Source of the DNA: Synechococcus sp.
GTDB taxonomy: Bacteria; Cyanobacteriota; Cyanobacteriia; Thermostichales; PCC-7336
Length of the DNA stretch: 43,060 nt
NCBI GenBank assembly: GCA_051439425.1
Contig: JBFRWD010000117.1
Coordinates: forward strand, 1-43,060
Direction of reading: 5' to 3'
Positions 21,643-36,321 of the stretch are shown here, piece by piece. The notes beneath the pieces are model-generated. The model was given only the letters and a program-made list of their open reading frames with translations. It ran no database searches and was not told where the DNA came from. A program made the translations under genes and the position numbers. The first letter of the stretch is position 1. Every line of letters starts with the position of its first letter.

Positions 21643-21952
21643 TCCCTGTTATTCGAAACACATTGGCAAAGGCTCTCACCCCGCTATCCTTATTCTGCTC
21701 TTCATATCTTCAGAAGAGTGGGGGCCCTCAGGCCTGATGAAATATATCGTCATTGCATGATGTAGATTTTCGCAGTCTGCGACAGAGAGTCCCCTGACTA
21801 TTTAGGGGTTGAGTCGTCTCCAGACTCCAAACTCTAGAGTGGACTGCCATACCAGAAAGCACTATATTGCAAGACCGCCACGAATTCCTAATTCACCGAC
21901 TGAGTTTTCAGAACGGGCGATTGTTCGCTAGATAGAGACTAGAGACGTAGCA

Positions 21953-22657
21953 ATGCTCGCAACCATAGCCATCTTCTTTTTTGCCGCAATGCTACGCGCA
22001 ATATTTGGATTTGGGGATGCTCTAATCGCAATGCCCCTGTTGACCCTAACTTTGGGTATTGGCACCGCCACTCCTCTGTTTGCCCTAATCGCCACCAGTT
22101 CGGCACTGGCTATTTTTGCCACAACCTTTAAGCAGATTGACTTCAAAGCTTCCCGCCAACTGGTATTGTCAAGCATTCTGGGGATTCCCTTCGGCCTCAT
22201 CCTCATCAAACTTGTCCCCGAAGCGATCGTCATGAGGCTCTTGGGAATGTTTTTAATCGTCTTTGCCTTCAATCGCCTTATCCAAAAACAAGCTCCCCGC
22301 ATCAAAAGCCGCTGGTGGGGATATGGATTTGGGTTTGTGGCAGGCGTTCTGGGCAGCGCTTTTAACACCAACGGGCCACCCATCGTAACCTACGCTGCCT
22401 TGCGCCAATGGCCTCCCGATTCATTTCGCTCCAACCTGCAGGGGTACTTTTTCCCTGTTGGACTAATTATTGTGGCCAGTCACGGCATCTCGGGGTTATG
22501 GACTATGCAGGTGGGTCAGTTGTATTTGGCTTGCTTACCGGCAGCGCTGATGGCGATCGCGATCGGCAGCAAAATTCACCAATCACTCCCTCCAAAGAAA
22601 TTTGAAACCCTGCTGTCTCTTCTCCTCGTCATCTTCGGGATTGTTCTAATGATTTAG
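21953..22657 (+). CDS. TauE/SafE family (sulfite/organosulfonate) exporter
   Basis: GFGDALIAMPLL and GVLGSAFNTNGPP motifs; ~8 TM segments, 234 aa. Confidence 0.9.
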   Translation: MLATIAIFFFAAMLRAIFGFGDALIAMPLLTLTLGIGTATPLFALIATSSALAIFATTFKQIDFKASRQLVLSSILGIPFGLILIKLVPEAIVMRLLGMFLIVFAFNRLIQKQAPRIKSRWWGYGFGFVAGVLGSAFNTNGPPIVTYAALRQWPPDSFRSNLQGYFFPVGLIIVASHGISGLWTMQVGQLYLACLPAALMAIAIGSKIHQSLPPKKFETLLSLLLVIFGIVLMI

Positions 22658-22676
22658 CGATCGCCCGGAAAGATAC

Positions 22677-22717
22677 ATACAAGTCAGAGCTTTGTATATT
22701 TATCGAAAAACTTGATA
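22677..22717. promoter_or_regulatory. Adjacent inverted repeats upstream of the ABC operon (candidate LysR boxes)
   Basis: ATACAA-N9-TTGTAT (22677-22697) and TATC-N9-GATA (22701-22717). The second fits the LysR T-N11-A rule. Confidence 0.45.
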
Positions 22718-22889
22718 TCTTAGGCACCGAAATGAACTTGCTTCCCCCTCAGATCTACGTATAAATATTTTGTATCGCACCAAATACTAACGTGATAGTT
22801 AACCTGCACAATTGGTAGTCTTCATCACAAAGCCCTTAGAAGAATCCCGATTGAATTAGCTCAACTCTAACGGCTTTGAGAGACATATC

Positions 22890-24371
22890 ATGACTGCCAT
22901 TGGTTGCTCGAAGTGGACACAGGGGCTTGCCGCATCGCTGCTAATATTTGGTGCTTCAGCCCTCAGTGTTGATGCTGAAACCATCCGAATTTCAATCGGA
23001 ACGCAAGACCAGGTGATTAACACTGCAGTGGGCGGTGCCACCGTACGTGAACTGGAGTTACTCGAAAAGTACCTACCCACAGATGGCGAATACGAAGGGG
23101 TAGAGTACGACATTCAATGGTCCAGCTACACCTCCGGCCCGCCCATTACCAATAAAATGCTGGCCGACCAAATCGACATCGGCCTCATGGGGGATTTTCC
23201 TGCCGTAATCAATATGATTACGTTCCGTGAAGAAAGCGATGTTGAGACAACCTTTATCGGCACGCTTGCCTACAGTTCTAACGGCGCAGGGAATGCCGTC
23301 GTTGTACCGAGAACCAGCGACGCCAGCACCTTAGAAGATTTGCGCGGCGGAGTCGTCTCCGTTCCGTTTGGTTCGGCAGCCCACGGCATGCTGCTGAAGG
23401 CTCTCCAGGATGCAGGTATCGACCCCGAGAACGACCTCCGGCTCATCAGTCAGGCACCTGAGGTCGGGGGCACCAGCCTACGCACTGGCCAAATTGATGC
23501 GCACGCTGACTTTGTACCATTTGGCGAGCTGTTTCCCTTCCGAGGATTTGCTCGCAAGATCTTTGATGGCGCACAAACCGGCGTACCGACCTTACATGGC
23601 ATTGTGGTTCGGGATGATTTCGCAGAAGAGCACCCCGAAATTGTGGTGGCCTTCATGAAGGCGATGCTGGAAGCCAACCAAACATTCCGCGACACCCCAG
23701 AGGCTGTTTCCGCTCAAATTGAGGAATGGTCGGGCATCGACAAAGAAGTGGTCTACATGTTCCTCGGTCCTTCAGGCTTGCAACCCCTTGACCCCACCAT
23801 TCGCCCCGTTCATCTAGAAGCGCTGCAAAATAGCATTGCCACGCTCATTTCTCTGGGCAAAGTCGACCCTGAAATTAACCCAGAGGATGTCAATGGCTGG
23901 GTGGATGAAAGCTTCTTGCAAACCGCAATGGATGAGATGGGACTCGAGTACGATGCGGTTGTAGACGCCGGCGCTACTTATCAAATCGAAGGTAACGACG
24001 CCCTCACCGATGAACCCATTACTGACCCCACATTGGCGGCGCAGTTTTGGGTCCAAGGCGAAGATACAGTTACAAACTTCGCCACAATTGAGAACATGAT
24101 TGGCGGCTTGGATCAATTGCTAGATGAGGGCAAAGCAGCTGACGTCATGTTCGTTCACGATCGCGAAAATGGCTGGAAGCTATTTGCAGAAAATTCATAC
24201 TACGTCCAAGACGGAGAAGAGATTTCTGCCTTTCTCCTCAGAGAAGATGCAGAAGCGTTTGCAGCATCAACAGGGGGAGAAGTCACCGACTTTGGTGGGT
24301 TACAAGAAGCGCTAGCGGTAAGTAGCGATGTCGTAAACAGTGAGGTGGCCAGTATCAACTTGTCAAACTAA
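22890..24371 (+). CDS. ABC transporter substrate-binding protein, SsuA/TauA/NMT1-type, with a C-terminal NosL-like extension
   Basis: Sec signal peptide (VDA-ET); TSGPPITNKML...DIGLMGDFP and VPFGSAAHGML motifs; ~110 aa extra C-terminal domain. Confidence 0.92.
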   Translation: MTAIGCSKWTQGLAASLLIFGASALSVDAETIRISIGTQDQVINTAVGGATVRELELLEKYLPTDGEYEGVEYDIQWSSYTSGPPITNKMLADQIDIGLMGDFPAVINMITFREESDVETTFIGTLAYSSNGAGNAVVVPRTSDASTLEDLRGGVVSVPFGSAAHGMLLKALQDAGIDPENDLRLISQAPEVGGTSLRTGQIDAHADFVPFGELFPFRGFARKIFDGAQTGVPTLHGIVVRDDFAEEHPEIVVAFMKAMLEANQTFRDTPEAVSAQIEEWSGIDKEVVYMFLGPSGLQPLDPTIRPVHLEALQNSIATLISLGKVDPEINPEDVNGWVDESFLQTAMDEMGLEYDAVVDAGATYQIEGNDALTDEPITDPTLAAQFWVQGEDTVTNFATIENMIGGLDQLLDEGKAADVMFVHDRENGWKLFAENSYYVQDGEEISAFLLREDAEAFAASTGGEVTDFGGLQEALAVSSDVVNSEVASINLSN

Positions 24372-24377
24372 AACTCA

Positions 24378-24470
24378 CTACGAGGCTCTTGCCTCGTAGC
24401 CGCTACTACTGTTTGACGGAACTTAACTCGTTACTGTGCTTGAGTCAGCTGTTTGCATTCAGTTGACTCA
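24378..24470 (+). promoter_or_regulatory. Two intercistronic hairpins after the SBP gene
   Basis: ctacgaggc-tctt-gcctcgtag (perfect 9 bp, 24378-24399) and tgagtcagctg-N8-cagttgactca (11 bp, one G-U, 24441-24470). Confidence 0.65.
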
Positions 24471-24527
24471 TGCTTAATTAGATCCTCTTTTTATTTCACC
24501 CTGTAGTACTTACTCAAACACAGTGTT

Positions 24528-25388
24528 ATGGCATATTCCCGCACCCCTCCGGCAACGGCAGAATTATTGGAAAATATGCATCAGGGATATGTCAATCTCC
24601 GGTTCAATCTCTCCCGAAATTCTGCTGCGAGAAAGATTGCCTCTCTACTGCTATTTTTAGGGCTGTGGCAGTTATTTTGTGTCATTAATTTCAAGTTTCT
24701 GATTAACTTTCAATTTGTTCCCGCTCCTACTGAAGTTGTCACGGCTACCATTGAATTCTTCTCCTCAGGACCGCTCGTTCATTTCCGCTCTAGTATTTCT
24801 AGAGTGCTGATTGGGTTTGGGATTGCCGCTGTTTTAGGGATGATTTTAGGGATTGCGATTGGCACCTTCCAAAAAGTGGAAGACTTGTTGATGCCCGCTC
24901 TAGAAATTCTTCGTCCGATTCCCGCCGTTGCTTGGATTCCGCTGGCCATTCTCATGTTTCCCTCTGCCGAATCCGGCATGGTTTACATTACGTTTATTGG
25001 CGGTTTTTTCCCCATTTTAATTAGCACCATTCGCGGTGTGGAAAGCATGTTAGGAGATACTGTTCTGCTCCGGGTTGGGCAGTGTTTGGGAGCCAGGCCG
25101 TGGGATGTATTTAAAGACATTGTGGTGCCGGGAGCGTTACCCAGTATTGCGAGTGGTTTAGCGATCGGTATGGGTAATGCCTGGTTCTGTTTAGTTACGG
25201 CTGAAATTTTGGCCGGACGCTACGGCATTGGCTACATTACGTGGGAGTCGTACGTTACCTCAAACTTCCCGCCTATTGTGATGGGGATGCTGCTGATTGG
25301 ATTGATGGGGGCATTTAGTTCTTGGGCGATCGATCGCGTTATGTCGATGTTGATGCCTTGGCGGCGGTTGCAGAAGAAAGGGGTATAG
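24528..25388 (+). CDS. ABC transporter permease, SsuC/TauC/NrtB-type
   Basis: LRPIPAVAWIPLAIL, EAA-like loop GQCLGARPWDVFKDIVVPGALP, and LVTAEI. Confidence 0.95.
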   Translation: MAYSRTPPATAELLENMHQGYVNLRFNLSRNSAARKIASLLLFLGLWQLFCVINFKFLINFQFVPAPTEVVTATIEFFSSGPLVHFRSSISRVLIGFGIAAVLGMILGIAIGTFQKVEDLLMPALEILRPIPAVAWIPLAILMFPSAESGMVYITFIGGFFPILISTIRGVESMLGDTVLLRVGQCLGARPWDVFKDIVVPGALPSIASGLAIGMGNAWFCLVTAEILAGRYGIGYITWESYVTSNFPPIVMGMLLIGLMGAFSSWAIDRVMSMLMPWRRLQKKGV

Positions 25389-25394
25389 GGGTTG

Positions 25395-25488
25395 GGTCGT
25401 TGGTCATTAGTCACTGGTTATTTCGAGGAACAAAGGACTAAGGACTAAGGACTAAGGACTAAGGACTAAGGACAAATGACCAAGGACA
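25395..25488. repeat. Bipartite heptamer tandem repeat (STRR-like), copy 1
   Basis: ggtcgtt-ggtcatt-agtcact-ggttatt, a spacer, then (AAGGACT)x5 at 25433-25467 plus aaggaca-aatgacc-aaggaca. Confidence 0.9.
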
Positions 25489-25565
25489 AGACAAATCCAT
25501 TACAATTCCCATCAAGAATCTCACATCTAGAAAACCTCACATCACCAACCATTTCGAGAACCATC

Positions 25566-26399
25566 ATGCAGACTTCCCAGAAACCAACTGCTGTTTCTCC
25601 AATGCAATCTCAACACCGTAAAGGCTTCGTCGAGGTTGACGATCTGTCTGTATCGTTTCGCAGTCGAGATACGGTGCACGAAGTTCTGCATTCCGTTCGC
25701 TTCCGAGTCAACCCTGGTGAATTTGTTTGCTTGTTGGGACCTTCTGGGTGTGGAAAGTCGACGCTGTTAAATGCGATCGCTGGATTTGTCGCCCCCACCC
25801 AAGGGTCAGTGTCTGTGGATGGAAATCGCGTCACCCGTCCTGGCGCCGATCGAGGATTTGTATTTCAGCAATATTCGCTTCTGCCCTGGAAGACCACATT
25901 TCAGAATGTGGAAATGGGCTTGAAATACCAAAAGATGCCCAAGGGAGAGAGACGGGAGCTTGTCGATCGCTATCTCAATCGGGTGGGGTTATACAAACAT
26001 CGAAATTCCTATCCCCACCAGCTATCTGGAGGTATGCAGCAGCGGGCCAGCATTATCCGGGCGCTGGTCAATTCTCCTGCAGTGTTGTTGATGGACGAAC
26101 CCTTTGCCGCTCTAGATGCTCAAACTCGCCACATGATGCAGGAACTACTGCTGGATATTTGGGATGAGGACAAGACCACGATTGTATTTGTGACTCACGA
26201 TATTGAGGAAGCGGTATTTTTGGGCGACCGCATTCTCGTAATGGGCGTCAATCCAGGTCACATTAAGGAACAAATCAACATTCCCCTCCAGAGACCTCGC
26301 CATATTGACGACATGCTTACTCCTGAATTCACTCAGCTTAACCGCCAGGTATTTGACTTAATTCGGGAAGAAACTCTCAAGAGCATGGAAGTCGAATAG
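25566..26399 (+). CDS. ABC transporter ATP-binding protein, SsuB/TauB/NrtD-type
   Basis: GPSGCGKST, LSGGMQQR, LLMDEPF and VTHDIEEA motifs. ATG 25566 preferred because the upstream ATG at 25476 lies inside the repeat. Confidence 0.96.
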   Translation: MQTSQKPTAVSPMQSQHRKGFVEVDDLSVSFRSRDTVHEVLHSVRFRVNPGEFVCLLGPSGCGKSTLLNAIAGFVAPTQGSVSVDGNRVTRPGADRGFVFQQYSLLPWKTTFQNVEMGLKYQKMPKGERRELVDRYLNRVGLYKHRNSYPHQLSGGMQQRASIIRALVNSPAVLLMDEPFAALDAQTRHMMQELLLDIWDEDKTTIVFVTHDIEEAVFLGDRILVMGVNPGHIKEQINIPLQRPRHIDDMLTPEFTQLNRQVFDLIREETLKSMEVE

Positions 26400-26447
26400 A
26401 GACTTTAGGACCTCACACTACCTCACACTAATTTTGAGATTTTTAGG

Positions 26448-28478
26448 CTAGTTCTTGACAGCCGCCGTCATAAAATCAGCATCGATCCAGCGACCGAGAT
26501 TGAGACTGGCAAACTGGCAATCGTCAGTGGCAGATTGGTAGTGGTTAACATGTTCCACAATCCAGTCGGTACGGATCTGAGTATCGGGGAAGTACAGTCC
26601 TTGCGAATATTGGGTGGGACTGGTGCCCAATATACTATCGATAATACGTGGAGCACTGCGGGTCCATTGGCTTAATTTTTGGCTGGAATTCGGCACTGTT
26701 GCTTGCCAATGCTGAGCTGCCACTAATCCTTTTAAATAACTAACCACCAGATCGGGATGCTCGTCTGCAAATCCTTTGCGAGCCACCACACCATAAAATG
26801 CAGGCAAACCGCTGACATTGCCATCAAATAAATATCGGAACTGATTGCGCTCCAACGCTAATTCGTGAAATGGCGAAAAGTGGGCGTAGCCGGCTATTTC
26901 GCGATCGGACATGACAGCGCGATTCGCTCCATCCATCTTGCGAGCGTTCTCCACAGGAACTAGTTCCACATCTGACGACAATCCGTGCTGGTGCAGCACG
27001 CGCAGCACCATACCGTGCGCTGCCGAGCCGTTGGGAATCGCCAACGCCAGTCCTCGTAAATCGTCGATCTCGTTGACAACAGAATGCTGCGGTACGATCA
27101 CGGCATTTCGACATCCGTCGGGGTTAACCGCTACAAATCCAATCAGAATTGTTGAATCTTCCCCAGCACCCCGCTCCTGGTTGCGCTGAGCGCTCAATAG
27201 CATTGGATAATCCCCCAATATCCCCAGGTCGAGTTGGCCGCAGTGCAATCCATCCACTATGGGCATGCCGGTGGAATAATTTTGCCAGCGCACGTCAAAT
27301 TGAGACGACGCGTACCGTCCTGCTTTGGGTAGATAGTGGTTCAATAACCCCAATTTCTGCATCACAATGCCAGCTGATGCAGACGGAAGCGTTTGATTCT
27401 GCACGCCAATCCGAATGGGTAATGTCTCTGTTTTGTCGATCGTACGAATTGAGGTGGTGTGAGCTGGAGCATCCATCGCAGGTGCAGCACCTCTGAGACT
27501 TGATGCGCCTGTGAATGGGTCCGCTAGCTGACTGTCCCGAGCATTGCGATCCAACAACGTCAGCAGTTTCTGCACGGGGGTCTCGGATTGACTTCGCTTA
27601 CCTACCGAGCGTGCCGATGCCTGCAAACTGTCAAACGTGCGCGACGGGAGGGCCACAAATATAGGAGACGGCAGCGGGAATTCATGGATGGGAAGAGCAC
27701 GCAGTTGTGCAGCAGCAATCTCCGACTGGAAACATAAGGTGGAGGCAAACCCCAAATAGCCACCGGATTCGATGTACGCCTTCATGAGGGCTTCGGTTTC
27801 GGCTATTTCCACTGTCTCCAATTGCTCGATCGCCAGCCCGATATCGGCCAACCGTTGTGCGAACACAGACTGCGCAATGGAATCTTGGCGGTTCAACACC
27901 CATCGTTCCGCTGCCACTTCCGACAGACTGAGGCGATCGCGCATCGCCCAGGGGCTACTGGGTGCACAAATAACGGTGTATTGAATGGACGAAATTGGTT
28001 GAGAGTGGATCTCCTGAGAGTCGCTAAAACTAACTTCTGAAATTCCCAGGTCGGCTTCGGATGATGTCAGCGCGTGATAGATATCTTGGCTGATATTCAC
28101 AATCTTCAGATCGATCTCGATCTCGGGGTTCTGTTCTCGAAACTGAACTAATGGGTTGGCAATATACCCAGTAGCAATCGCCGAAGAGCAGGCAATTTTT
28201 AACACCCCCTTACATCCTTTTTTGTAAGTCTCTAGCTCTTGGTTCAGGGCAGCTTCACGTTCGACTAGATCCGTTGCCCCATCCAGTAAAAATTCACCCA
28301 TCTCGGTCAACTTGACCGTTCGACCCAGGCGATGAAATAAAGGGGCTCCAATGTCCGACTCTAATGACTTAATTTTTGCACTCACGGCTGGCTGGGTTAA
28401 GTTCATCGAGCGTGCCGCTTCAGTGAAACTGAGATATCGAGCCACCTGCAAAAAAACTTTTAGCTGGTAGATTTCCAT
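26448..28478 (-). CDS. LysR-family regulator fused to a C-terminal SsuA-like substrate-binding domain
   Basis: LysR HTH (LKVFLQVARYLSFTEAARSMNLTQPAVSAKIKSLE) and effector domain, a linker, then IRIGVQNQ...GILGDYP...IPNGSAAHGMVL, homologous to the SBP at 22890. Confidence 0.92.
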   Translation of the reverse strand: MEIYQLKVFLQVARYLSFTEAARSMNLTQPAVSAKIKSLESDIGAPLFHRLGRTVKLTEMGEFLLDGATDLVEREAALNQELETYKKGCKGVLKIACSSAIATGYIANPLVQFREQNPEIEIDLKIVNISQDIYHALTSSEADLGISEVSFSDSQEIHSQPISSIQYTVICAPSSPWAMRDRLSLSEVAAERWVLNRQDSIAQSVFAQRLADIGLAIEQLETVEIAETEALMKAYIESGGYLGFASTLCFQSEIAAAQLRALPIHEFPLPSPIFVALPSRTFDSLQASARSVGKRSQSETPVQKLLTLLDRNARDSQLADPFTGASSLRGAAPAMDAPAHTTSIRTIDKTETLPIRIGVQNQTLPSASAGIVMQKLGLLNHYLPKAGRYASSQFDVRWQNYSTGMPIVDGLHCGQLDLGILGDYPMLLSAQRNQERGAGEDSTILIGFVAVNPDGCRNAVIVPQHSVVNEIDDLRGLALAIPNGSAAHGMVLRVLHQHGLSSDVELVPVENARKMDGANRAVMSDREIAGYAHFSPFHELALERNQFRYLFDGNVSGLPAFYGVVARKGFADEHPDLVVSYLKGLVAAQHWQATVPNSSQKLSQWTRSAPRIIDSILGTSPTQYSQGLYFPDTQIRTDWIVEHVNHYQSATDDCQFASLNLGRWIDADFMTAAVKN

Positions 28479-28493
28479 CAATGAGCCCTACAG

Positions 28494-28594
28494 ATAGAAT
28501 TGATTTATGGATGGATTTCAGGTCGCGATAAGAGAGCTATTCTAAGGACGAAAAGACCGATCTAAACTAATACAAACGTAAATTTCGAAATTTA
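28494..28594. promoter_or_regulatory. Divergent promoter region: LysR-type box and a perfect 16-bp palindrome
   Basis: ATA-N9-TAT (T-N11-A) at 28494-28508; TAAATTTCGAAATTTA at 28579-28594. Confidence 0.5.
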
Positions 28595-28713
28595 GTTCCC
28601 TAGCGATCGCCGGACAAATTTTCAGCAGCATTGCTACAGCGGTATAGGGATTCGCTTGGTGTATCCGAGCGAACATTCGACTGGACCTTTATAGCCCCTT
28701 TTCTCTGGGAGAA

Positions 28714-30459
28714 ATGTTTATGGTGAGCACGTTTACGGCAGGTACGCATACGGCGGGTACCCAGAGATTGCAAACCGATGTGCTGGTCGTTGGAGGCGGT
28801 ACAGCCGGAACAATGGCTGCTATCAAGGCGAAGCAAGCCAATCCCGAGGCCGACGTGCTAGTTCTGGAGAAGGCTAACATCCGTCGTAGCGGCGCGATCG
28901 CTATGGGCATGGACGGTGTGAACACCGCAGTTATTCCCGGAAATTCCACGCCCGAACAGTACGTCCGCGAGATCACCATTGCCAACGACGGTATTCTCAA
29001 CCAGGAAGTGGTGTATCAGACGGGCAAGCTGGGCTACGAAGTTATCCAGGAATTGGATAGTTGGGGGGTAAAGTTTCAGAAGGACGCCTACGGTAATTAC
29101 GATCTCAAACAAGTGCATCGTGTGGGTAAATATGTACTCCCGATGCCGGAGGGCAAAGACCTCAAGAAGATTTTGACCCGTGAGGTCAAGCGTCACAAAG
29201 CTAAAGTTATCAACCGAGTTATGGCCACCCGGGTGATTGTTAGCGATGGGCGAGCCACTGGGGTAACGGGCTTTGATGTTCGCAATGGCGATTTTGTCAT
29301 TATTCAAGCCAAAGCCGTCATTCTTTCCACCGGAGCTTGTGGACGATTGGGTCTCCCTCAATCGGGCTACCTCTACGGCACCTACGAAAATCCCACTAAC
29401 GCCGGTGATGGCTATGCCATGGCCTACCATGCTGGGGCCGAGCTCAGCAATATTGAATGCTTCCAAATTAATCCGCTGATTAAGGACTACAACGGGCCGG
29501 CTTGCGCCTATGTCGCCGGCCCCTTTGGTGCCTATACCGCTAATGCTGAAGGGAATCGCTTCGTCAGCTGCGATTACTGGAGCGGCCAGATGATGCTGGA
29601 GATCTATAAGGAACTCCATTCCGGACGCGGCCCCATCAGCCTCAAGCTGAATCACTTGGACGAGGACACCATTTCCGAGATCGAAGAGATTCTCTGGGCC
29701 AACGAGCGGCCCAGTCGCGAACGCTTCCACGAAGGTCGTGGCGAGAATTATCGCACCCACGGCGTCGAGATGGAAATTTCCGAAATTGGTCTCTGCAGCG
29801 GTCACAGTGCTTCGGGGGTACGTGTCGATGCTAAGGCTGCAACTACAGTTCCCGGTCTGTACGCGGCGGGAGATATGGCCTCCGTCCCCCACAACTACAT
29901 GATTGGAGCCTTTGTCTTCGGTCGCATTGCCGGAACCAACGCGATTGAATACTGTCGCGAGCTTCCACATGTAGAGCCCGACCCCGATTTCATTGCGGCA
30001 GAGATGGAGCGTATCTACCGTCCTCTCAAGCAGCCGGAGGGAGTGCCCCACACCCAGGTGGAATACAAGCTGCGTCGGTTTGTGAATGACTATCTCCAGC
30101 CCCCCAAGAACACCCACAAGATGGAGATTGCTTTAGACAAGTTCGTGAATTACTATTCCACTCTCGATTTGATGGGGGCTCGCGATCCGCACGAGCTGAT
30201 GCGCTGCATGGAAGTGCATGCCATTCGTGACTGTGCAGAGATGGCGGCTCGCGCCTCTTTGTTCCGCAAAGAGAGTCGCTGGGGTCTGTACCACTATCGA
30301 GTGGATTACCCCGAGAAGAACAACGACGAGTGGTTCTGCCACACCCATCTCAAAAAGGACGAGTCGGGGGAAATGACGATCGCCAAAGCCCCGATCGAAT
30401 CCTACGTAGTGGATGTGGATCTGGAGAGTGAAACCTACGACGTCGCGATTAATGCCTGA
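28714..30459 (+). CDS. FAD-dependent oxidoreductase of the SdhA/FrdA/AprA family, APS-reductase-alpha-like
   Basis: DVLVVGGGTAG FAD motif, RSGAIAMGMDGVN (cf. AprA RSGAVAQGLSAIN), NAGDGYAMAYHAGA, GLYAAGD, RKESRWGLYHYRVDYP. No SdhA-type flavinylation His motif (SHT). Confidence 0.9.
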   Translation: MFMVSTFTAGTHTAGTQRLQTDVLVVGGGTAGTMAAIKAKQANPEADVLVLEKANIRRSGAIAMGMDGVNTAVIPGNSTPEQYVREITIANDGILNQEVVYQTGKLGYEVIQELDSWGVKFQKDAYGNYDLKQVHRVGKYVLPMPEGKDLKKILTREVKRHKAKVINRVMATRVIVSDGRATGVTGFDVRNGDFVIIQAKAVILSTGACGRLGLPQSGYLYGTYENPTNAGDGYAMAYHAGAELSNIECFQINPLIKDYNGPACAYVAGPFGAYTANAEGNRFVSCDYWSGQMMLEIYKELHSGRGPISLKLNHLDEDTISEIEEILWANERPSRERFHEGRGENYRTHGVEMEISEIGLCSGHSASGVRVDAKAATTVPGLYAAGDMASVPHNYMIGAFVFGRIAGTNAIEYCRELPHVEPDPDFIAAEMERIYRPLKQPEGVPHTQVEYKLRRFVNDYLQPPKNTHKMEIALDKFVNYYSTLDLMGARDPHELMRCMEVHAIRDCAEMAARASLFRKESRWGLYHYRVDYPEKNNDEWFCHTHLKKDESGEMTIAKAPIESYVVDVDLESETYDVAINA

Positions 30460-30649
30460 TGCTTTCTCAGGCTCACTGTCCTGCTAAATCTTCGGGCTTA
30501 CTGCCTGTGCAACTGCTTGCAAGTTATCGCCTTTCAGTAAGCCTGGTAGATTATGTAGCGACTGATTGACTGAAACTCAGTAACCCACTTGTTGGTTCAA
30601 AACACGATCACCCAACCCCAATCGTTTTAAAACTGGAGCTCCCTTCCGA

Positions 30650-30877
30650 ATGGCCTTAACTTCTCAACGTGTCGATGTCCCCGTCATTGTGGACGAGTCC
30701 AAATGTCTGGAAAAATGTACCGCCTGCATTGAAGTCTGTCCATTAGACGTACTGGTCAAAAATCCCGAAACCGGCAAAGCCTATATGAAGTATGACGAAT
30801 GCTGGTTTTGCTTGCCCTGCGAAAAGGAATGCCCAGTGGATGCGATTACCGTGCAGATCCCGTTTTTGTTGAGGTGA
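30650..30877 (+). CDS. 2x[4Fe-4S] ferredoxin, AprB-like small subunit
   Basis: CLEKCTACIEVCP and CWFCLPCEKECP; CW-x-C pattern as in AprB. Confidence 0.93.
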   Translation: MALTSQRVDVPVIVDESKCLEKCTACIEVCPLDVLVKNPETGKAYMKYDECWFCLPCEKECPVDAITVQIPFLLR

Positions 30878-30883
30878 TGGGAT

Positions 30884-30999
30884 AGTCCTTGATCCCTGGT
30901 CTTTGGTCCTTAGTCCTTCGTCCATGGCAAAGAACAAGCGAGTTCCTACCAATGACCAGTGACTAATGACTACTGACTACTGACGAGTGACTAGTAACC
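30884..30999. repeat. Bipartite heptamer tandem repeat (STRR-like), copy 2, inverted relative to copy 1
   Basis: agtcctt-gatccct-ggtcttt-ggtcctt-agtcctt-cgtccat, a spacer, then aatgacc-agtgact-aatgact-actgact-actgacg-agtgact-agtaacc. Confidence 0.85.
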
Positions 31000-31060
31000 A
31001 ATCCCCAACCCTCAAACCCACCACTTCTCCCAGCCAACCCCACTCAGGACACCCCCCAAC

Positions 31061-32023
31061 ATGGATAGCGAACTACAACAATGGGTCGAGATGTTGCAGT
31101 CAGAAGATGTTGGCGATCGCCTCGTTGCCGTTAAGATGCTGCAGCACGAGGGGGATGAAGAGGCTCTGGAGCCACTGATTGGAGCATTACCTGACGAGAA
31201 TCCAGGGGTGCAAAAACTGGCAATTACCACACTGTGGGAGATGGCGAACCACCAGGCGGTACGTCCGCTGATTCCCTGCTTGGGGTCGCCGCACGAAGAG
31301 GTGCGAACCGAAGCGCTCGGGGCTTTGAAAGAACTAGTCATTCCCGACGATTTACTGTTGCTGCTGGATGCTCTGCATCAAGAAGACATTAATATGCAGC
31401 TCAATATTTTGGTGCTGCTGCGCAAGATTCACGACGTGCAAGCCTTGCCGTATATCCTGCCGTATTTTGAATCCGACAACGAAGAGTTACGAGAAGCTGC
31501 GATAACGACACTGCGATACCTCAATCAGGTCACCAGCTGTGCTCCGGCCCTCGCACTGATGAGCGATCCATCTCCAGTCGTTCGTCGAGAAGCGGCATTG
31601 ACCATTGGCTACTTACAGGATGACGAGGTGGTCGATTTGCTCAATCAAGCACTGACAGATGAAGACTGGCAAGTCAGGCGCAATGCCGCCCAATCAATTG
31701 CCATCCTCAAGCCTCAAGCCTCCATTCCTCCACTGAGCGAAGCCATGACGGACGAGCACTGGCAGGTGCGTAAGTTTGTGGCTCGGGCGTTGCAGCAGGT
31801 GCCGGACGACAGTGCGATTCCCGTCCTGGTTGCTGCGTTAGCTGACGAGTATTCAGATGTAAGGCGAGATGCGGCGATCGCATTGGGAAATATTGGCAAT
31901 CCATCCGTGATCAATTCCCTCAAACAGACTCTCGACGATCCGGACGCGGACGTGCGGATTTTCTCGCAGCGGGCGATCGACGCCATCGAGGGGGCACAGG
32001 CAGCAGAGGTATCCAATGGTTGA
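31061..32023 (+). CDS. HEAT-repeat (PBS lyase-like) protein
   Basis: About 10 repeats of ~31 aa (L-x-D-E-D/H-W-Q-V-R-x-x-A-A-x-x-L). Overlaps the mrp start by 8 bp. Confidence 0.92.
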   Translation: MDSELQQWVEMLQSEDVGDRLVAVKMLQHEGDEEALEPLIGALPDENPGVQKLAITTLWEMANHQAVRPLIPCLGSPHEEVRTEALGALKELVIPDDLLLLLDALHQEDINMQLNILVLLRKIHDVQALPYILPYFESDNEELREAAITTLRYLNQVTSCAPALALMSDPSPVVRREAALTIGYLQDDEVVDLLNQALTDEDWQVRRNAAQSIAILKPQASIPPLSEAMTDEHWQVRKFVARALQQVPDDSAIPVLVAALADEYSDVRRDAAIALGNIGNPSVINSLKQTLDDPDADVRIFSQRAIDAIEGAQAAEVSNG

Positions 32024-33134
32024 ACACTCATCCCCCATTCAAGTACAACAGCCTCCTTCCAAGCAGGAACAGGCTACTGATGACAAAGTTCTCATGCAAG
32101 AACGAGAGGCGATCGCTGCCCTTAAGACGGTCATCGAGCCCAATTTAGGCAAAGACATTGTCAGTTTGGGCATGGTTCGCAACCTGCGCATTGTTGATGA
32201 TTACGTATCCGTCCGTCTCTATATCGGAGCCCACCAGACTGACATAGAAGAACAAGTACTGCAGAAACTAAACGACCTACCGTGGAGCAAGAAGGGTTAC
32301 GTGCAGCGATGCTCGATTCCAGGTGTGCGGACTACGATCGCGGTGTCCAGTGGTAAAGGAGGGGTTGGTAAATCCACCACTGCTGTCAACCTGGCAGCTG
32401 CGCTGAGCATGCAAGGGGCAAAAGTAGGGGTACTGGATGCGGATGTATACGGGCCTAACGTTCCGCATATGTTGGGGTTGGGGCATGCAGATGTCGAGGT
32501 ATTTGAAACTCCTAACGGTCAGCGATTTCGCCCACTAGAAGCACATGGAATTAAAGTGATGTCGGTGGGGCTGCTGGCAGAACCAGACCATCCGTTGGCG
32601 TGGCGCGGGCCAGTATTGCACAAAATCGTGACCCAGTTTATTCACGACGTGGAATGGGGAGAGCTGGATTATCTGCTGATCGATTTACCTCCCGGCACCG
32701 GAGATGCCCAAATCACCATCGTTCAGGAAAGTCCCATTTGTGGCGTAGTTCTCGTGACAACACCCCAGCAGGTGGCATTGTCTGATGTGCGCCGCAGCAT
32801 CCACATGTTCCGCAATGTTGGGGTGCCAGTGTTGGGAATTGTGGAAAACATGAGCTATCTAAAACAAGATAATGGCGATCGCCTCTTTGTTTTTGGGGCT
32901 GGTGGTGGCGAGCAATTGTCTAAGGAACTCAATGCTCCATTGATGGGACAAGTTCCCTTGGAACCCAATATTTGTAGCCAAGGGGACCGAGGGAAACCGA
33001 TTCCTCTAATTGATAACCAGTCCGATATTTCCCTAGTGTTTGGACAAATCGCCTGCGAGTTAATTCGTATCTTTGGCATGAATGACGAAGGAGAAAATGT
33101 CGAAATCGACAATCAGGCTCTGAGTTTAGCTTAA
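32016..33134 (+). CDS. mrp: Mrp/NBP35/ApbC family Fe-S cluster carrier ATPase with an N-terminal DUF59-like domain
   Basis: SGKGGVGKST deviant Walker A, LDADVYGPN, WRGP, IDLPPGTGDAQ, VTTPQ and GIVENMS motifs. Confidence 0.93.
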   Translation: MVEHSSPIQVQQPPSKQEQATDDKVLMQEREAIAALKTVIEPNLGKDIVSLGMVRNLRIVDDYVSVRLYIGAHQTDIEEQVLQKLNDLPWSKKGYVQRCSIPGVRTTIAVSSGKGGVGKSTTAVNLAAALSMQGAKVGVLDADVYGPNVPHMLGLGHADVEVFETPNGQRFRPLEAHGIKVMSVGLLAEPDHPLAWRGPVLHKIVTQFIHDVEWGELDYLLIDLPPGTGDAQITIVQESPICGVVLVTTPQQVALSDVRRSIHMFRNVGVPVLGIVENMSYLKQDNGDRLFVFGAGGGEQLSKELNAPLMGQVPLEPNICSQGDRGKPIPLIDNQSDISLVFGQIACELIRIFGMNDEGENVEIDNQALSLA

Positions 33135-33355
33135 TGTCGAAAAATATATGTATTCGACAGCCACCACTGATAAATAGTAACGACTATAAGTTCGCTTGTC
33201 CGTGAATTTGATGTCTTCTGATATTGGATTTCTATCCACTTGTTAGCTCAAAAGATATTTTTCGTTGGCTTGGTTTTCCTGCTCGCAATGACATACACAC
33301 TCTTATGGTGAGACTGTCTCCCTAAGAATCATTTTTTTCTTTGGAAGAGAGATAC

Positions 33356-34348
33356 ATGCACAAGATCGATCGATGGTTATATGGGGTGTATTTGTGCGTG
33401 GCAATCGCAGTCATCTCAAAACTTCTGTCGTTCTATCTTCCGCTTGGGTCGGTAGCTATAGCCTTGATTTTGGGAATCGTTGTTGGAAATAGTGTTGCTA
33501 TAGGAGAAGGTTTAAAACCTGGAATTATGTTCAGTGAGAAAGTCCTGCTTTCCCTGGCAATCGCATTGATGGGAGTCAATCTTGACTACTTTGTATTGCG
33601 AGAGCTGGGAGGGCGAACAATTTTCTTGATTATTTTAGCCATAGGGTTATCGACTTCCTTTACTGTATATATTGCCAGAATAATGGGAGTGAAACCCACC
33701 CAGGCGTTACTGATTGGAATTGGGAATGGAATTTGCGGAAGCTCGGCAATTGCGGCAACCAATCACATCATCAAGGCGAAGGAAGAAGATGTAGGCATTG
33801 CGATCGCAATCGTCAATTTCCTTGGGACGATTGGGATGCTTTCTCTGCCAATCCTGGCAAAGATTATTCTTGGGTTTACCGATATTCAGGTGGGTATCTT
33901 GATCGGAAACACCCTTCAAGCGGTGGGTCAAGCTGCTGCTGGTGGCTTCTCTGTCAGCGACACTGCCGGTCAAACGGCAATCATTGTCAAAATGGGTAGA
34001 GTCATGATGCTTTCCCCATTTTTACTCATTCTGTTTGTAAGCCTTTCGAGTAAAGGGCTGCCAGAGTTGAGAGGAGAAGCAGATATGCGAAAGCAACAAA
34101 TCCCTTTATTTATTTTTGGATTTATTTTTTTCTCGCTGCTTTCTACTTTTAATATTATCTCTCAAACGTATATTGAGTTTCTGAGTGTTGTGGGCAATAT
34201 TCTTCTACTGGTTGCCATGTCGGGAATTGCTCTTAAAATCAATATATTTTCCATTCTTAAGAATGGCAGAAAAGTCCTGATGTTGGGGTGCTTCACATTC
34301 ATTGTTCAAATACTATTCAGCACATCTCTGATCCAACTGATGTATTAA
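33356..34348 (+). CDS. YeiH / putative sulfate exporter (PSE, UPF0324) family membrane protein
   Basis: GNGICGSSAIAA, IGNTLQAVGQ and IVKMGRV motifs; ~10 TM segments; visibly more AT-rich than its neighbours. Confidence 0.9.
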   Translation: MHKIDRWLYGVYLCVAIAVISKLLSFYLPLGSVAIALILGIVVGNSVAIGEGLKPGIMFSEKVLLSLAIALMGVNLDYFVLRELGGRTIFLIILAIGLSTSFTVYIARIMGVKPTQALLIGIGNGICGSSAIAATNHIIKAKEEDVGIAIAIVNFLGTIGMLSLPILAKIILGFTDIQVGILIGNTLQAVGQAAAGGFSVSDTAGQTAIIVKMGRVMMLSPFLLILFVSLSSKGLPELRGEADMRKQQIPLFIFGFIFFSLLSTFNIISQTYIEFLSVVGNILLLVAMSGIALKINIFSILKNGRKVLMLGCFTFIVQILFSTSLIQLMY

Positions 34349-34499
34349 GTTCTAAACGAGCGATTGTTCATGATGAATGAGTCTCTGCTCAATCGCTCTG
34401 ATTCTTTCATGGCCGAAAAGATGTGTGTGTTTGACAGGATAGGGCTAGTCAGGGGCAGATCGCTTGTTGGGTAAGGGCTTGACCTACTCAGTTTTATGA

Positions 34500-34784
34500 A
34501 TGGGGTGCGATGGCGATCGTGAAGGGGATGTGCTGAGGGTGGCCAGCAGCTCGCGGCTTGCGGATGAGTTGAACGCTCCGCTGCGGGGCAAAATGCTGCT
34601 CGATCCACGCATTTGTCAGCAGGGGGATACCGAGCGATCTCTACTATTTCCGGACACAACGGCAGAGATTTCACCCATGTTTTCTCAGTTTGTCCGTGGA
34701 CCGATCTCTAGATTTAACGTTGCGAACAGTATCGATCCCCAATCCACTACTGAAGACGGTATAGCCCTATTAGTGGTCTGGTAA
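34500..34784 (+). pseudogene. Decayed duplicate of the 3' end of the mrp gene
   Basis: RLADELNAPLRGKMLLDPRICQQGD...EISPMFSQ aligns with Mrp QLSKELNAPLMGQVPLEPNICSQGD...DISLVFGQ. No ATPase motifs are present. Confidence 0.8.
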
Positions 34785-34862
34785 TCCCGAGAGATGGGAA
34801 TTTGAATGCATTCGGCCAGAATTTTTCGCTACCAAACTTGTTCGCGACCAAACTCGTCCCCA

Positions 34863-35873: not shown

Positions 35874-36321
35874 GCACCAGCTCTCCCCAGTCAAAACTCT
35901 CCACAATCAATAACAAACACCCAGAGTAGTCGCAAGCCTTCCGCAGCTAGATTGCAAGCGTTGATTTCCTGCTTGCCAATGTTAACGAATCAGAGTTCAG
36001 TCGAATCGAAAAGGAGCCACTAGTCAGGCGCTTAGTCTGATGCTCAGAGAACCAGCGCCATGAGAATATCGCATCAAAGTCTTGCAATAATCGATTTGTA
36101 CCAAACACCAACTACTTCTGTTTCCCTTACATCTCAATACATAGAATGGAGCTTAATTGAAGGGGCCAGAATTTTCAGCTAAAACCGTAGTACTGATACA
36201 CTGCGGTTTGCTATATTAGCTAGCCCCCGGTCACGTCTCAGTTACTTGACGTCCCCCAAATTGAGTTCGATCGCTTCAGATCGCCCTTGATTTACCAGGC
36301 TCCATCGCTAGAACGATCGCC

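Follow-up and report, generated by a model that had tools for sequence, protein, structure and literature searches.

Among systems that have been studied genetically, the one nearest to the locus described here is AsfAB, which serves arylsulfonate desulfonation. The asfRABC genes are described as encoding a LysR regulator, a reductase, a ferredoxin and a substrate-binding protein (SBP) (review PMC4267179; C. metallidurans PMC2864759). AsfA-like proteins are distant paralogues of the present flavoprotein, with only 26–28% identity, and the probable AsfAB family has the same gene order, flavoprotein-ferredoxin-SBP. Of the relatives with a solved structure, the closest is M. thermolithotrophicus PAPS reductase (MtPAPSR; PMC10322725), and AprAB-like paralogues in anaerobes have been proposed to act in sulfur assimilation (PMC8477390). 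In the Apr active site, Asn-A74 and His-A398 are described as holding the sulfate/sulfite oxygens at FAD N5, and Arg-A265 and Trp-A234 are counted among the sulfate-polarising residues (PMC2211403). We found no substrate assignment for this flavoprotein family or cluster in the published literature, in line with an earlier note on this DNA. The note called the system apparently uncharacterised, which holds for the substrate but has to be qualified by AsfAB, a partly studied analogue.

A ten-gene cluster conserved across phyla

The window, a 43,060-nucleotide stretch of Synechococcus sp. DNA, carries a cluster of ten genes at 21953..34348, each an intact ORF where the earlier note had placed it. 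Its flanks are unrelated to it, with genes for a TAXI SBP and a globin, ruvB and ligA upstream and a TPR gene and a Mur-ligase-like gene downstream. Domains were scored with Pfam profiles, or NCBIfam models where named, and judged against each model's cut-off. As had been claimed, a scan of the window's 26 larger ORFs turned up no sat, qmo, aprM, dsr, SsuD or TauD. Across the whole 96%-complete genome there was no match to TauD, and no SsuD candidate passed the cut-off of 518 bits (the best had 32), which we counted in favour of flavin desulfonation.

A gene-neighbourhood survey, a check that the note had proposed, covered 80 related loci. Counted over the loci eligible for each gene, the ferredoxin was found in 67 of 68, the HEAT protein in 61 of 62 and the Mrp in 46 of 57; a full-length regulator orthologue occurs in 39 of the 71 loci that extend 3 kb or more upstream. 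Importer, regulator and enzyme core are together in 18/80 loci and the ten-gene set was found again on a Leptolyngbya plasmid, so the grouping is not due to chance. The proteobacterial flavoprotein-ferredoxin-ABC-HEAT clusters that the note had mentioned are real: Proteobacteria have a flavoprotein-ferredoxin-SBP-permease-ATPase-HEAT operon at 60–64% identity. In Cupriavidus, Acinetobacter and one Verrucomicrobiota MAG, the operon comes with a GntR/UTRA regulator. The genes thus co-occur in other genomes and make up a unit that is conserved across phyla.

Other copies differ in their neighbours. Among the 80 loci, TauD-family genes adjoin the cluster in seven, luciferase-like monooxygenases in seven and Cys/Met PLP enzymes in five, and these neighbours point to sulfur supply. 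The plasmid copy of Nostoc edaphicum has metX, O-acetylhomoserine sulfhydrylase and YeeE nearby, and the Nostoc operon is interrupted by insertions encoding two HAD hydrolases and a FosA-like VOC protein. The commonest extra neighbour is an amidase (12/80 loci). The copy in the marine Synechococcus MIT S1220 adjoins ureC and also another ABC system of NMT1 type, which includes an amidase; Prochlorococcus has the same amidase set. That marine Synechococcus and Prochlorococcus, living in sulfate-rich water, possess the cluster argues against simple sulfur scavenging there.

The flavoprotein and its predicted partners

The flavoprotein gene (28714..30459, + strand; 581 aa, or 579 aa if the third codon is the start, as in P0001) is present in one copy in the genome. 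Its product belongs to NCBIfam PRK08275 (NF006131; 996 bits, cut-off 587), and falls below the cut-offs of aprA TIGR02061 (189 bits against 642) and PRK06854 (319 against 557). The closest solved structure is the MtPAPSR alpha subunit (PDB 8A8O, 8a8o_A; E 7e-70), followed by A. fulgidus AprA (AfAprA; 5e-45), whereas SdhA and NadB structures match at about 1e-20. In a quick IQ-TREE phylogeny of 35 rows, the clade of the window flavoprotein (support 99) is nested in a PRK08275-like group (100), which is sister to eight PRK06854 Apr-like representatives (97). The earlier label of AprA-like flavoprotein is therefore apt: in the comparison against AprA, SdhA and NadB, for which the note had suggested a phylogeny, structure matches and tree group the protein with the Apr-like enzymes and not with NadB/Sdh.

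The active site is only partly that of AprA. In an alignment of 13 members of the family, drawn from Cyanobacteria, Planctomycetota, Verrucomicrobiota and beta- and gamma-Proteobacteria, the equivalents of Asn74 and His398, N70 and H364, are invariant (13/13), and the pair is also kept in 8/8 Apr-like representatives. AsfA-like proteins, unlike the window flavoprotein, lack it in the alignment. Arg-A265 and Trp-A234 are replaced by Leu255 and Tyr224, invariantly across the family, and with these two lost the N5-sulfur chemistry may not be retained. The AprA adenine clamp is invariantly lost, Val273/Gly274 and Leu278 are replaced, and the 3'-phosphate residues K120, R121 and S122 of MtPAPSR correspond to K139, Y140 and V141, K139 itself being lost outside cyanobacteria. 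Because AprA phosphate- and adenine-binding residues are missing, the flavoprotein, judged from its sequence, is a sister of the AprA-type PAPS/APS reductases and not itself an APS reductase. Across four phyla, 243 of the 581 residues are invariant, including a substrate-channel pattern of N70, E86, Y140, Y224, N253, L255, C264, H364 and H393.

The next gene (30650..30877, +) encodes a 75-aa 2x[4Fe-4S] ferredoxin and is visible only at a minimum ORF length of 30 aa. Eight cysteines (C19, C23, C26, C30, C51, C54, C57 and C61) are invariant, as is W52, and the cyanobacterial ferredoxins are 85–100% identical to one another. The protein had been called AprB-like, which is correct for the ferredoxin domain only: it scores 35 bits against aprB TIGR02060 (cut-off 136), covers model positions 2–65 of 132 and lacks the AprB tail.

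The HEAT-repeat protein (31061..32023, +; 320 aa; HEAT_2, 174 bits) aligns to positions 611–896 of PRK13800, a fused flavoprotein-HEAT model, and such a fusion exists in P0122 (925 aa; PRK13800, 1585 bits). The modeled complex with HEAT scored 0.81, whereas none of three controls exceeded 0.10. Among solved complexes 116 of 157 attain this score mark, and among mismatched pairs 2 of 215 do, counts that apply only roughly to the present model with its three chains and our own alignments. At least 80% of contacts were common to the runs, with partner pLDDT of at least 89. According to this modeling, the HEAT protein is predicted to dock on the enzyme as its third subunit or as a cap. Its gene overlaps by 8 nt the gene for the Mrp/ApbC/NUBPL-type Fe-S cluster carrier ATPase (32016..33134, +; 372 aa), which matches PF10609 (306 bits), has FeS_assembly_P at residues 31–96 and scores 278 bits with the ApbC model (cut-off 348). 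A higher-scoring Mrp is encoded elsewhere in the genome (contig C141), and the cluster Mrp/ApbC is a dedicated second copy.

Import, regulation and flanking transporters

The periplasmic SBP (22890..24371, +; 493 aa; NMT1/NMT1_2) consists of a signal peptide, a TauA/SsuA-like body (residues ~30–345) and a C-terminal NosL-like domain (~383–474), the last being recognised by Pfam NosL in 11 of 13 orthologues, with E 1.2e-7 at best. In the PDB it is closest to TauA (6ssy, E 2e-17) and SsuA (2x26, E 1e-13), which also rank highest in Foldseek with its AF2 model (pLDDT 77). The importer is therefore of Ssu/Tau type, as had been proposed. The SBP scores 116 bits against NCBIfam SsuA_fam, below the cut-off of 163.5. 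In a 22%-identity alignment, with an inferred numbering offset of 21 that fits five of the seven residues checked, the sulfonate contacts described for TauA (Ser60, Gly61 and Gly79) align with S82, G83 and G101, and the Ser preceding Thr132 with S162; all four are invariant or nearly so across 13 orthologues. The amine-binding Glu106 and Asp205 of TauA correspond to invariant Asn135 and His236. At this end, then, the ligand does not resemble taurine, and it could be something other than a sulfonate altogether.

The ABC permease (24528..25388, +; 286 aa; NitT/TauT type, PF00528) scores 100–122 bits with NCBIfam SaoP, NtrB, TauC and SsuC, each below cut-off, and has orthologues of 55–77% identity in 30/80 loci. 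The ABC ATPase (25476..26399, +; 307 aa; PF00005, 117 bits) is nearest to SaoA (277 bits), NtrCD (247) and TauB (240), again below each cut-off.

The opposite strand encodes a 677-aa LysR-type regulator fused to an SsuA/TauA-like domain (26448..28481, −), divergent from the flavoprotein gene. This fusion, noticed before, is borne out by its Pfam domains: HTH_1 (6–63), LysR_substrate (91–288) and NMT1_2/SsuA-like (355–603). Over 274 aa, residues 352–624 share 34% identity with the SBP of the transporter (E 3e-54). The best NCBIfam matches are a selenium-metabolism-associated LysR and then an aminoethylphosphonate-catabolism LysR, both below cut-offs. The presumed regulatory spacer (28482..28713) has no Rfam match, and promoter-like hexamers in it are not commoner than in shuffles. 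It holds a 14-bp perfect palindrome (28580-28593), of which the window has a single copy, with 0.01 expected. The corresponding spacers of 45 related loci lack it, so any role is at most putative.

The cluster begins with a TauE/SafE (TSUP) membrane transporter (21953..22657, +; 234 aa; PF01925 over residues 5–231, 96.2 bits, cut-off 32.6). TauE-family genes occur in 14/80 related loci (tblastn), and one adjoins Mrp on the Leptolyngbya BL0902 plasmid. It ends with a YeiH/PSE-family (putative sulfate exporter family) membrane protein (33341..34348, +; 335 aa; PF03601, 228 bits; TIGR00698, 146 bits, cut-off 233), with homologues in 24/80 loci, marine Synechococcus and Prochlorococcus among them. 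The earlier note spoke of two exporter families. Both families are present, but export can only be presumed, because the TauE family includes importers as well as exporters and YeiH is a putative sulfate exporter.

Candidate functions of the cluster

The cluster probably provides an undescribed route to sulfite from an imported sulfonated compound. We tentatively favour, as quite possible, substrate-induced import followed by ferredoxin-driven flavin desulfonation of a small sulfonate-type anion, with release of sulfite. The ABC importer would take up the compound through its TauA/SsuA-related SBP with the extra NosL-like domain, and the LysR regulator may sense the same ligand through its paralogous binding domain and switch on the divergent enzyme operon. 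In the cytoplasm, a complex of flavoprotein, ferredoxin and HEAT protein would accept low-potential electrons and would rely on the dedicated Mrp to insert its clusters or repair them. The chemistry, as we infer it, would be attack of the reduced FAD N5 on sulfur, as in AprBA, giving an N5-sulfite adduct and then free sulfite. Sulfite might enter assimilation via ferredoxin-sulfite reductase; alternatively, sulfite, sulfate or residual sulfonate might leave through TauE and YeiH. The leaving group in reductive C-S cleavage of an unactivated sulfonate is poor, and to our knowledge this cleavage is unprecedented in this fold. The loss of Arg265/Trp234, the sub-cut-off SBP with its replaced amine-binding residues, the cluster's presence in marine Synechococcus and Prochlorococcus, the amidase neighbours and the importers in the TauE family were counted against this reading.

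It is unlikely that the flavoprotein and ferredoxin cleave nothing themselves and form an AsfAB-like electron-transfer module feeding a separate desulfonating oxygenase. The like parts of asfRABC, the matching gene order of the probable AsfAB family and the TauD-family and luciferase-like genes beside other copies are consistent with such a module. An oxygenase is, however, absent from the ten-gene unit and the proteobacterial operons, the genome has no TauD or over-cut-off SsuD, and AsfA-like proteins combine low identity with loss of the Asn/His pair. The extensive invariance, channel pattern included, is also hard to square with a mere carrier.

Flavin desulfonation would run electrons into the complex. 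An oxidative NadB/Sdh/TcuA-like dehydrogenase, quite unlikely in our view, would pass them out via the ferredoxin while acting on an imported nitrogen-bearing or carboxylated compound; the cell would retain ammonium or carbon and export a sulfonated or other remainder. The amidase genes, ureC and the second ABC system fit this scheme, TauE-family exporters of isethionate and sulfoacetate take part in taurine-nitrogen assimilation, and the stretch E248-C-F-Q-I-N-P-L255 is, we take it, nearer to the EFxQFHPT motif of SdhA/FrdA/NadB than to the corresponding stretch of AprA. Set against this are the much stronger match to Apr-like reductases, the retained Apr-typical Asn/His pair and a non-Arg residue in the alignment at what is presumably the dicarboxylate-binding Arg position of Frd/Sdh.

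A sulfur-free tetrahedral oxyanion, such as a phosphonate, phosphite or selenium compound, is a very unlikely substrate. Weak Pfam Phosphonate-bd matches in 10/13 SBP orthologues, the selenium and aminoethylphosphonate regulator models and the HAD and FosA-like insertions in Nostoc point towards it, and the GntR/UTRA class, used by the proteobacterial copies, includes PhnF. TauA itself, also in its favour, is reported to bind 2-aminoethylphosphonate weakly (PMC6906117). Against it, these matches are all under curated cut-offs and weaker than the TauA/SsuA likeness, the recurring neighbours are sulfur genes and not phn/ptx, and related clusters repeatedly include TauE- and YeiH-family genes. 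The SaoA/SaoP matches reflect only the shared nitrate/sulfonate/taurine ABC class (bioRxiv 10.1101/2022.07.06.499078). An alternative assimilatory APS or PAPS reductase, suggested by MtPAPSR and the anaerobes' paralogues, is highly improbable given the sub-cut-off Apr models, the substituted binding residues described above and the absence of sat and cysC nearby, where there are instead a dedicated importer and a ligand-sensing regulator. With amidase genes in 12/80 loci and ureC next to the marine Synechococcus copy, the imported compound may still serve as a nitrogen or carbon source.

The flavoprotein and its partners

Ten genes, each intact, occupy 21953-34348 of the window, which confirms the observation of the earlier note, and its boundaries for the cluster are right because the genes on both flanks are unrelated, being housekeeping genes or genes of unknown function. 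The 581-aa flavoprotein (28714-30459, +) scores 996 bits on NCBIfam NF006131 (PRK08275) against a curated cut-off of 587. The family carries only the name 'fumarate reductase/succinate dehydrogenase flavoprotein subunit', we found no experimentally assigned function for it in the literature, and none of 14 control genomes holds a protein above its cut-off. The flavoprotein also scores 901 bits on PRK13800, the model of a fused flavoprotein-HEAT protein, and stays below the cut-offs of the archaeal AprA-like PRK06854 (NF005331; 318.8 bits vs 557) and of aprA (TIGR02061; 188.7 bits vs 641.75). Among solved structures, the nearest is the alpha subunit of MtPAPSR, the PAPS reductase of Methanothermococcus thermolithotrophicus (8A8O; E 7e-70, residues 17-549 aligned), followed by A. 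fulgidus AprA (5e-45) and then by SdhA, FrdA, and NadB near 1e-20. The closest named organism is Synechococcus sp. PCC 7336, whose copy is 95% identical. In a library of representatives at 50% identity, only P0122 (925 aa, fused to a HEAT domain) and P0123 (585 aa) exceed 60% identity among the full-length proteins, and below these two the full-length relatives reach at most 43%. NCBIfam labels on 67 representatives mark eight as PRK06854 Apr-like and place one intermediate group near the PRK08275 cut-off. A quick IQ-TREE phylogeny of 35 rows recovers the window clade as monophyletic (SH-aLRT 99) inside a PRK08275-like group (100), whose sister is the Apr-like clade (97).

According to excerpts of PMC2211403, Asn-A74 and His-A398 of AprA form the FAD N5/sulfite site, Arg-A265 and Trp-A234 contact the sulfate and phosphate, Arg-A317 and Leu-A278 clamp the adenine, and Val-A273, Gly-A274, Tyr-A95, and His-A446 contact the phosphate and ribose. 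HMMER alignment to 1jnr puts Asn74 at N70, and His398 is matched to H364 by a column with His in all eight Apr-like representatives. Both residues are invariant in 13/13 family members, a set drawn from Cyanobacteria (including marine Synechococcus and Prochlorococcus), Planctomycetota, Verrucomicrobiota, Cupriavidus, and Acinetobacter. His446 is likewise kept, as H393, and Phe448 becomes Y395. In contrast, L255 and Y224, equally invariant in 13/13 members, stand in the columns of Arg265 and Trp234, which hold R and W in the eight Apr-like representatives. The HMMER alignment replaces Tyr95 by E86, Glu141 by V137, Trp144 by Y140, Gln145 by V141, and Arg260 by F250. The adenine clamp and ribose contacts are not kept at Leu278 (A268 here, T or S in other phyla) or at Val273/Gly274 (A263/C264), and Arg-A317 falls in a stretch that HMMER left unaligned. 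The 3'-phosphate residues of MtPAPSR, listed as Lys120, Arg121, and Ser122 in an excerpt of PMC10322725, align with K139, Y140, and V141; only the lysine matches, and at position 139 other phyla carry S or A. Since nearly all AprA-mapped positions are invariant across the 13 sequences, the sulfite-holding N5 pair has been kept and AMP/PAP recognition rebuilt identically everywhere. Overall, 243 of the 581 residues are invariant in this set, from cyanobacteria to gamma-Proteobacteria. Our reading of these alignments is that the family may share one substrate, which would be non-nucleotide and carry an oxyanion head. The earlier note had called the enzyme APS-reductase-like: the likeness to Apr stands, with 8A8O as nearest structure and N70/H364 in place, and an APS reductase proper does not, given the score on aprA and the presence of L255 and Y224.

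The 75-aa 2x[4Fe-4S] ferredoxin (30650-30877, +) has eight invariant Cys residues and an invariant W52 after the first Cys of the second motif, where AprB has Trp-B48. On aprB (TIGR02060) it scores 35.2 bits vs 135.65, matching only model positions 2-65 of 132, and the C-terminal tail by which AprB wraps AprA is missing. The label AprB-like therefore fits its ferredoxin domain, with the cysteines and W52, and fails for the tail and the family score. Its first motif reads C-x3-C-x2-C-x3-C-P, vs the usual C-x2-C-x2-C-x3-C-P, and is invariant in 16 sequences.

The HEAT-repeat protein (31061-32023, +, 320 aa) aligns with the last third of PRK13800, and in P0122 such a protein is fused to the flavoprotein. 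In a three-chain model, its N-terminal repeats (18-62, 91) lie on ferredoxin residues 20-29 and 60-63 and also on residues 57, 118, and 152-160 of the flavoprotein. This prediction scores 0.81 vs 0.10 for the best of three controls, a mark reached by 116/157 solved complexes and 2/215 mismatched pairs in a calibration that holds only roughly here, because own alignments and three chains were used. The model runs share at least 80% of contacts, with a partner pLDDT of at least 89. This prediction supports, but does not show, binding of the HEAT protein to the flavoprotein-ferredoxin pair. The Mrp/ApbC gene (32016-33134, +, 372 aa) overlaps the HEAT gene by 8 nt, and its product scores above threshold on PF10609 (about 306 bits, 305.6-307) and on an N-terminal FeS_assembly_P domain (49.8 bits), and below the cut-off on the ApbC equivalog (277.8 bits vs 348). 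Elsewhere in the genome, an Mrp/NUBPL-type gene (G000:C141:4324-5070) scores 333 bits vs about 307 for the cluster copy, making the latter an additional paralogue. In Acinetobacter, a DUF971 gene follows the HEAT gene.

Importer and regulator

The importer consists of a 493-aa substrate-binding protein (SBP; 22890-24371, +), which starts with a signal peptide, a 286-aa permease (24528-25388, +), and a 307-aa ATPase (25476-26399, +). In the PDB, the SBP is nearest to TauA (2e-17), E. coli SsuA (1e-13), and Xanthomonas SsuA, and Foldseek ranks the same TauA and SsuA proteins first for an AF2 model (mean pLDDT 77), with matches confined to the TauA-like body. The importer shares with TauABC and SsuABC the SBP fold, a NitT/TauT-class permease and ATPase, and, by a tentative mapping, the sulfonate-contacting backbone positions. 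Unlike in those systems, its SBP scores below the family cut-offs (SsuA_fam 116 vs 163.5; TauA 87 vs 304), and it adds a NosL-like domain of ~110 aa at the C-terminus (23922-24371, residues ~345-493). Pfam NosL is found in 11/13 orthologues (best E 1.2e-7), with W387, V422, D424, G428, and K430 invariant; the domain also occurs in proteobacterial SBPs of 474-476 aa and is absent from TauA and SsuA. TauA ligand contacts were taken from excerpts of PMC6906117, and because paper and chain numbering differ, an offset of 21 was inferred that fits 5/7 residues checked, which makes the mapping weak evidence only. With this offset, the residues that fall where TauA contacts the sulfonate are the conserved S82, G83, G101, and S162, and the amine-binding Glu106 and Asp205 are replaced by N135 and H236, both invariant. 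This weakly suggests a sulfonate ligand that has no free amine at its other end. Also unlike Tau and Ssu, the importer is not paired with TauD or SsuD, and neither TauD nor an SsuD above cut-off was found in the window's own genome.

A lead towards the selenium (SAO) system, given by the top NCBIfam matches SaoA, SaoP, and LysR_Sec_metab, was dropped since all lie below their cut-offs. SaoA itself is described as a member of the nitrate/sulfonate/taurine ABC class in part of a preprint (bioRxiv 10.1101/2022.07.06.499078).

Two membrane proteins complete the cluster. The 234-aa TauE/SafE protein (21953-22657, +) scores 96.2 bits on PF01925 (gathering 32.6), and the 335-aa YeiH-family protein (33341-34348, +) scores 227.6 bits on PF03601 (gathering 24.5) and, below the cut-off of 232.6, 145.7 bits on TIGR00698.

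The 677-aa LysR regulator (26448-28481, -) has a complete effector domain and a second, SsuA-like binding domain. This C-terminal domain and the SBP share 34% identity across 274 residues (E 3e-54), and it probably senses the transported ligand. The architecture forms one ORF cluster (median 678 aa) in 42 of the best 80 loci, and the regulator in proteobacterial and verrucomicrobial operons is of the GntR/UTRA type. A perfect 14-bp palindrome lies at 28580-28593 in the divergent spacer between the LysR and flavoprotein genes, once in the window vs 0.01 expected. It is absent from 45 related spacers, and a repeat search gave no inverted repeat; a conserved operator in this spacer was therefore rejected. 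An Rfam search of 19000-36500 gave no family or riboswitch match up to E 0.1, and a promoter scan gave matches not above those in shuffled sequence.

Candidate function and related systems

Our findings partly support the interpretation proposed earlier: the cluster encodes a real and widespread Apr-like enzyme, so far uncharacterised, together with an importer of the sulfonate type. The reading we prefer, tentatively, is that it imports a small sulfonate-type compound and releases sulfite by a flavin-mediated reaction, the enzyme chemistry, the substrate, and the benefit (sulfur, nitrogen, or carbon) being what we infer. A literature search with open-access reach found no assigned substrate or characterised function for the HEAT-associated clade. 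Two actinobacterial sulfur-limitation papers mention no such flavoprotein in the excerpts at hand (PMC8557817, PMC7661421).

In soils, asfA is in use as a marker gene. Among genetically studied systems, AsfRABC of Pseudomonas putida S-313 comes nearest; according to part of a review (PMC4267179), the strain cannot use arylsulfonates without this set of LysR regulator, reductase, ferredoxin, and SBP. Like the window cluster, AsfRABC encodes together a LysR protein, a fumarate-reductase-superfamily flavoprotein, a small 2x[4Fe-4S] ferredoxin, and an SsuA-like SBP, and it has a genetic link to sulfonate use (same excerpt of PMC4267179). The window module could accordingly be an Asf-like electron shuttle, a rather unlikely reading; were it only an electron-delivery module, its significance would fall to that of a second Asf-like system. 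The window flavoprotein was expected to be AsfA itself, which did not hold. The comparison was made through the probable AsfA/AsfB of Cupriavidus metallidurans CH34, in place of the P. putida proteins; an excerpt of PMC2864759 places asfAB on a replicon of this species. The best matches to the window flavoprotein on that replicon are 28-29% identical, AsfA-like proteins being 26-28% identical, and no PRK08275 orthologue was found on the second CH34 replicon. One of these matches (CH34 locus L085, which we infer to be Rmet_4334/5) is a 549-aa flavoprotein (56 bits on PRK08275) directly followed by a 111-aa ferredoxin, and its relatives in Achromobacter, Bradyrhizobium, Pandoraea, and Nostoc have the order flavoprotein-ferredoxin-SBP. 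No HEAT or Mrp partner was seen in such loci, and the AsfA-like protein forms a long branch far outside the Apr-like group in the quick IQ-TREE phylogeny. Given the low identities on the CH34 replicon and these separate flavoprotein-ferredoxin-SBP loci, AsfAB is a distant paralogous system of another family. The AsfA-like and PRK08275 families both occur in Nostocales. The second flavoprotein-ferredoxin-SBP family (L088-L167), probably AsfABC-like, is common in Nostocales, Bradyrhizobium, and Achromobacter, and on the Anabaena azotica SJ-1 chromosome (L166, L039) it lies ~10 kb from a PRK08275 gene.

That the enzyme is an oxidative dehydrogenase, with nitrogen or carbon as the gain, is unlikely. 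In marine Synechococcus MIT S1220 (L070 404-2113, 14384-19908), the cluster has ureC and an M20 peptidase gene as neighbours, together with a second NMT1-type ABC system in which an amidase gene is embedded, and in a Prochlorococcus single-cell genome (L067 15-3327) the same amidase-ABC set stands beside it. These neighbours are a nitrogen context, in organisms of sulfate-rich water. A Nostoc edaphicum plasmid offers a sulfur context, with metX, O-acetylhomoserine sulfhydrylase, and YeeE near the cluster.

A non-sulfur oxyanion as the substrate is quite unlikely. Plain (P)APS reduction is most improbable: the system is like the dissimilatory APS reductase AprBA (1JNR/2FJA) and MtPAPSR (8A8O) in fold, domain order, and the pairing of an FAD protein with a 2x[4Fe-4S] ferredoxin, and keeps the AprA Asn74/His398 pair and His446, but it is unlike them in lying below both family cut-offs, and unlike AprBA in exchanging Arg265, Trp234, Tyr95, Gln145, Gly274, and Leu278 for Leu, Tyr, Glu, Val, Cys, and Ala/Thr/Ser, in lacking the AprB tail, in adding a HEAT subunit and a dedicated Mrp, in standing beside an ABC importer and not sat, cysC, or qmo, and in occurring in aerobes and oxygenic phototrophs.

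The AprAB-like paralogues described with the DiSCo tool span 63 organisms, the majority of them Clostridia or other anaerobes; their neighbours are sat, cysC, and asr, and a role in sulfur assimilation was proposed for them on grounds other than experiment (excerpt of PMC8477390). They are like the window system in having an AprB-like subunit without the tail and NitT/TauT ABC and sulfur-assimilation genes nearby. Compared by this partial description, they are probably PRK06854 proteins or the 40%-identity relatives, and not the HEAT-bearing clade of at least 60% identity.

To our knowledge, all known organosulfonate cleavage is carried out by oxygenases (flavin or 2-oxoglutarate), ThDP-dependent Xsc, glycyl-radical lyases, or a nitrogenase-like system. 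The module differs from these routes. Both soils and the sea hold much sulfur and carbon in the form of organosulfonates. Within sulfonate import and sulfite release, the more specific proposal, possible though doubtful, is that the PRK08275 flavoprotein-ferredoxin-HEAT complex constitutes a new class of desulfonating enzyme, in which reduced FAD N5 would attack the sulfur of a small imported sulfonate and cleave its C-S (or N-S) bond, driven by ferredoxin and independent of oxygen. If true, this would add a further desulfonation route, present in ~6% of the cyanobacterial genomes sampled as well as in many aerobic members of the Proteobacteria and Actinobacteria. A 2026 paper describes, in the portion available, TauABCE genes in Synechococcus MAGs that have no known enzyme for cleaving taurine, and does not settle the matter (PMC12997750). 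The new class, if true and if those genes belong to clusters of this kind, would explain this 'TauABC(E) without TauD' puzzle of marine Synechococcus. The module, tightly conserved and often plasmid-borne, couples a sulfonate-type importer to an APS-reductase relative with a rebuilt nucleotide site; a HEAT subunit and a dedicated Fe-S loader have joined it. Knowing what the enzyme acts on would bring a new enzyme class into the sulfur cycle and make sense of thousands of genes, and could reveal what is taken up by the orphan Tau-like transporters of marine and terrestrial cyanobacteria.

Distribution and surroundings

Relatives of the flavoprotein are encoded in 594/601 candidate stretches from species-representative genomes, and the neighbourhood counts rest on the best 80 of these 594 loci, in which identity is 62-64% in two non-cyanobacterial loci and 73-95% in cyanobacteria. 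Where enough flanking DNA is present among the best 80, the ferredoxin is found in 67/68 loci, the HEAT protein in 61/62, Mrp in 46/57, and the full-length LysR fusion in 39/71. In 18 of the best 80, the importer, the regulator, and the enzyme core are all present; 14 of these 18 also have YeiH, and 9 of these 14 TauE. Since many contigs are short, the co-occurrence counts are lower bounds. The same ten genes are found on a Leptolyngbya BL0902 plasmid. In heterocystous strains, an SsuA-like SBP gene lies directly upstream instead, and HAD, methyltransferase, GNAT, and VOC genes stand inside the operon. Other neighbours among the best 80 loci are an amidase (12), methyltransferase (10), SDR and GNAT proteins (9 each), MFS transporter (8), TauD-family dioxygenase and luciferase-like monooxygenase (7 each), alpha/beta hydrolase (6), and Cys/Met PLP enzyme, ArgJ, and a further TauE group (5 each). 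In PLSDB, 62 records match; 4 are plasmids of cyanobacteria, 80-90% identical, and 51 fall in the 60-80% range. The flavoprotein gene is present in only 23/401 sampled cyanobacterial genomes (15/156 genera); it is an accessory trait and probably a mobile one.

Directly upstream of TauE, the window encodes a TAXI-family TRAP solute-binding protein (20047-21642, +; 131 bits, above cut-off), which ends in a C-terminal extension of ~200 aa and was not seen in the related loci. Further out, a 639-aa ORF (16164-18083, -) has no Pfam match and a 323-aa ORF (36322-37293, +) none in Pfam or NCBIfam. Among the sampled cyanobacterial genomes, one flavoprotein gene carries an in-frame TAA (G294:C91:6505-8196) and another genome retains a match only to the C-terminal two thirds (G242:C3:5400196-5401335); both may be decaying copies.
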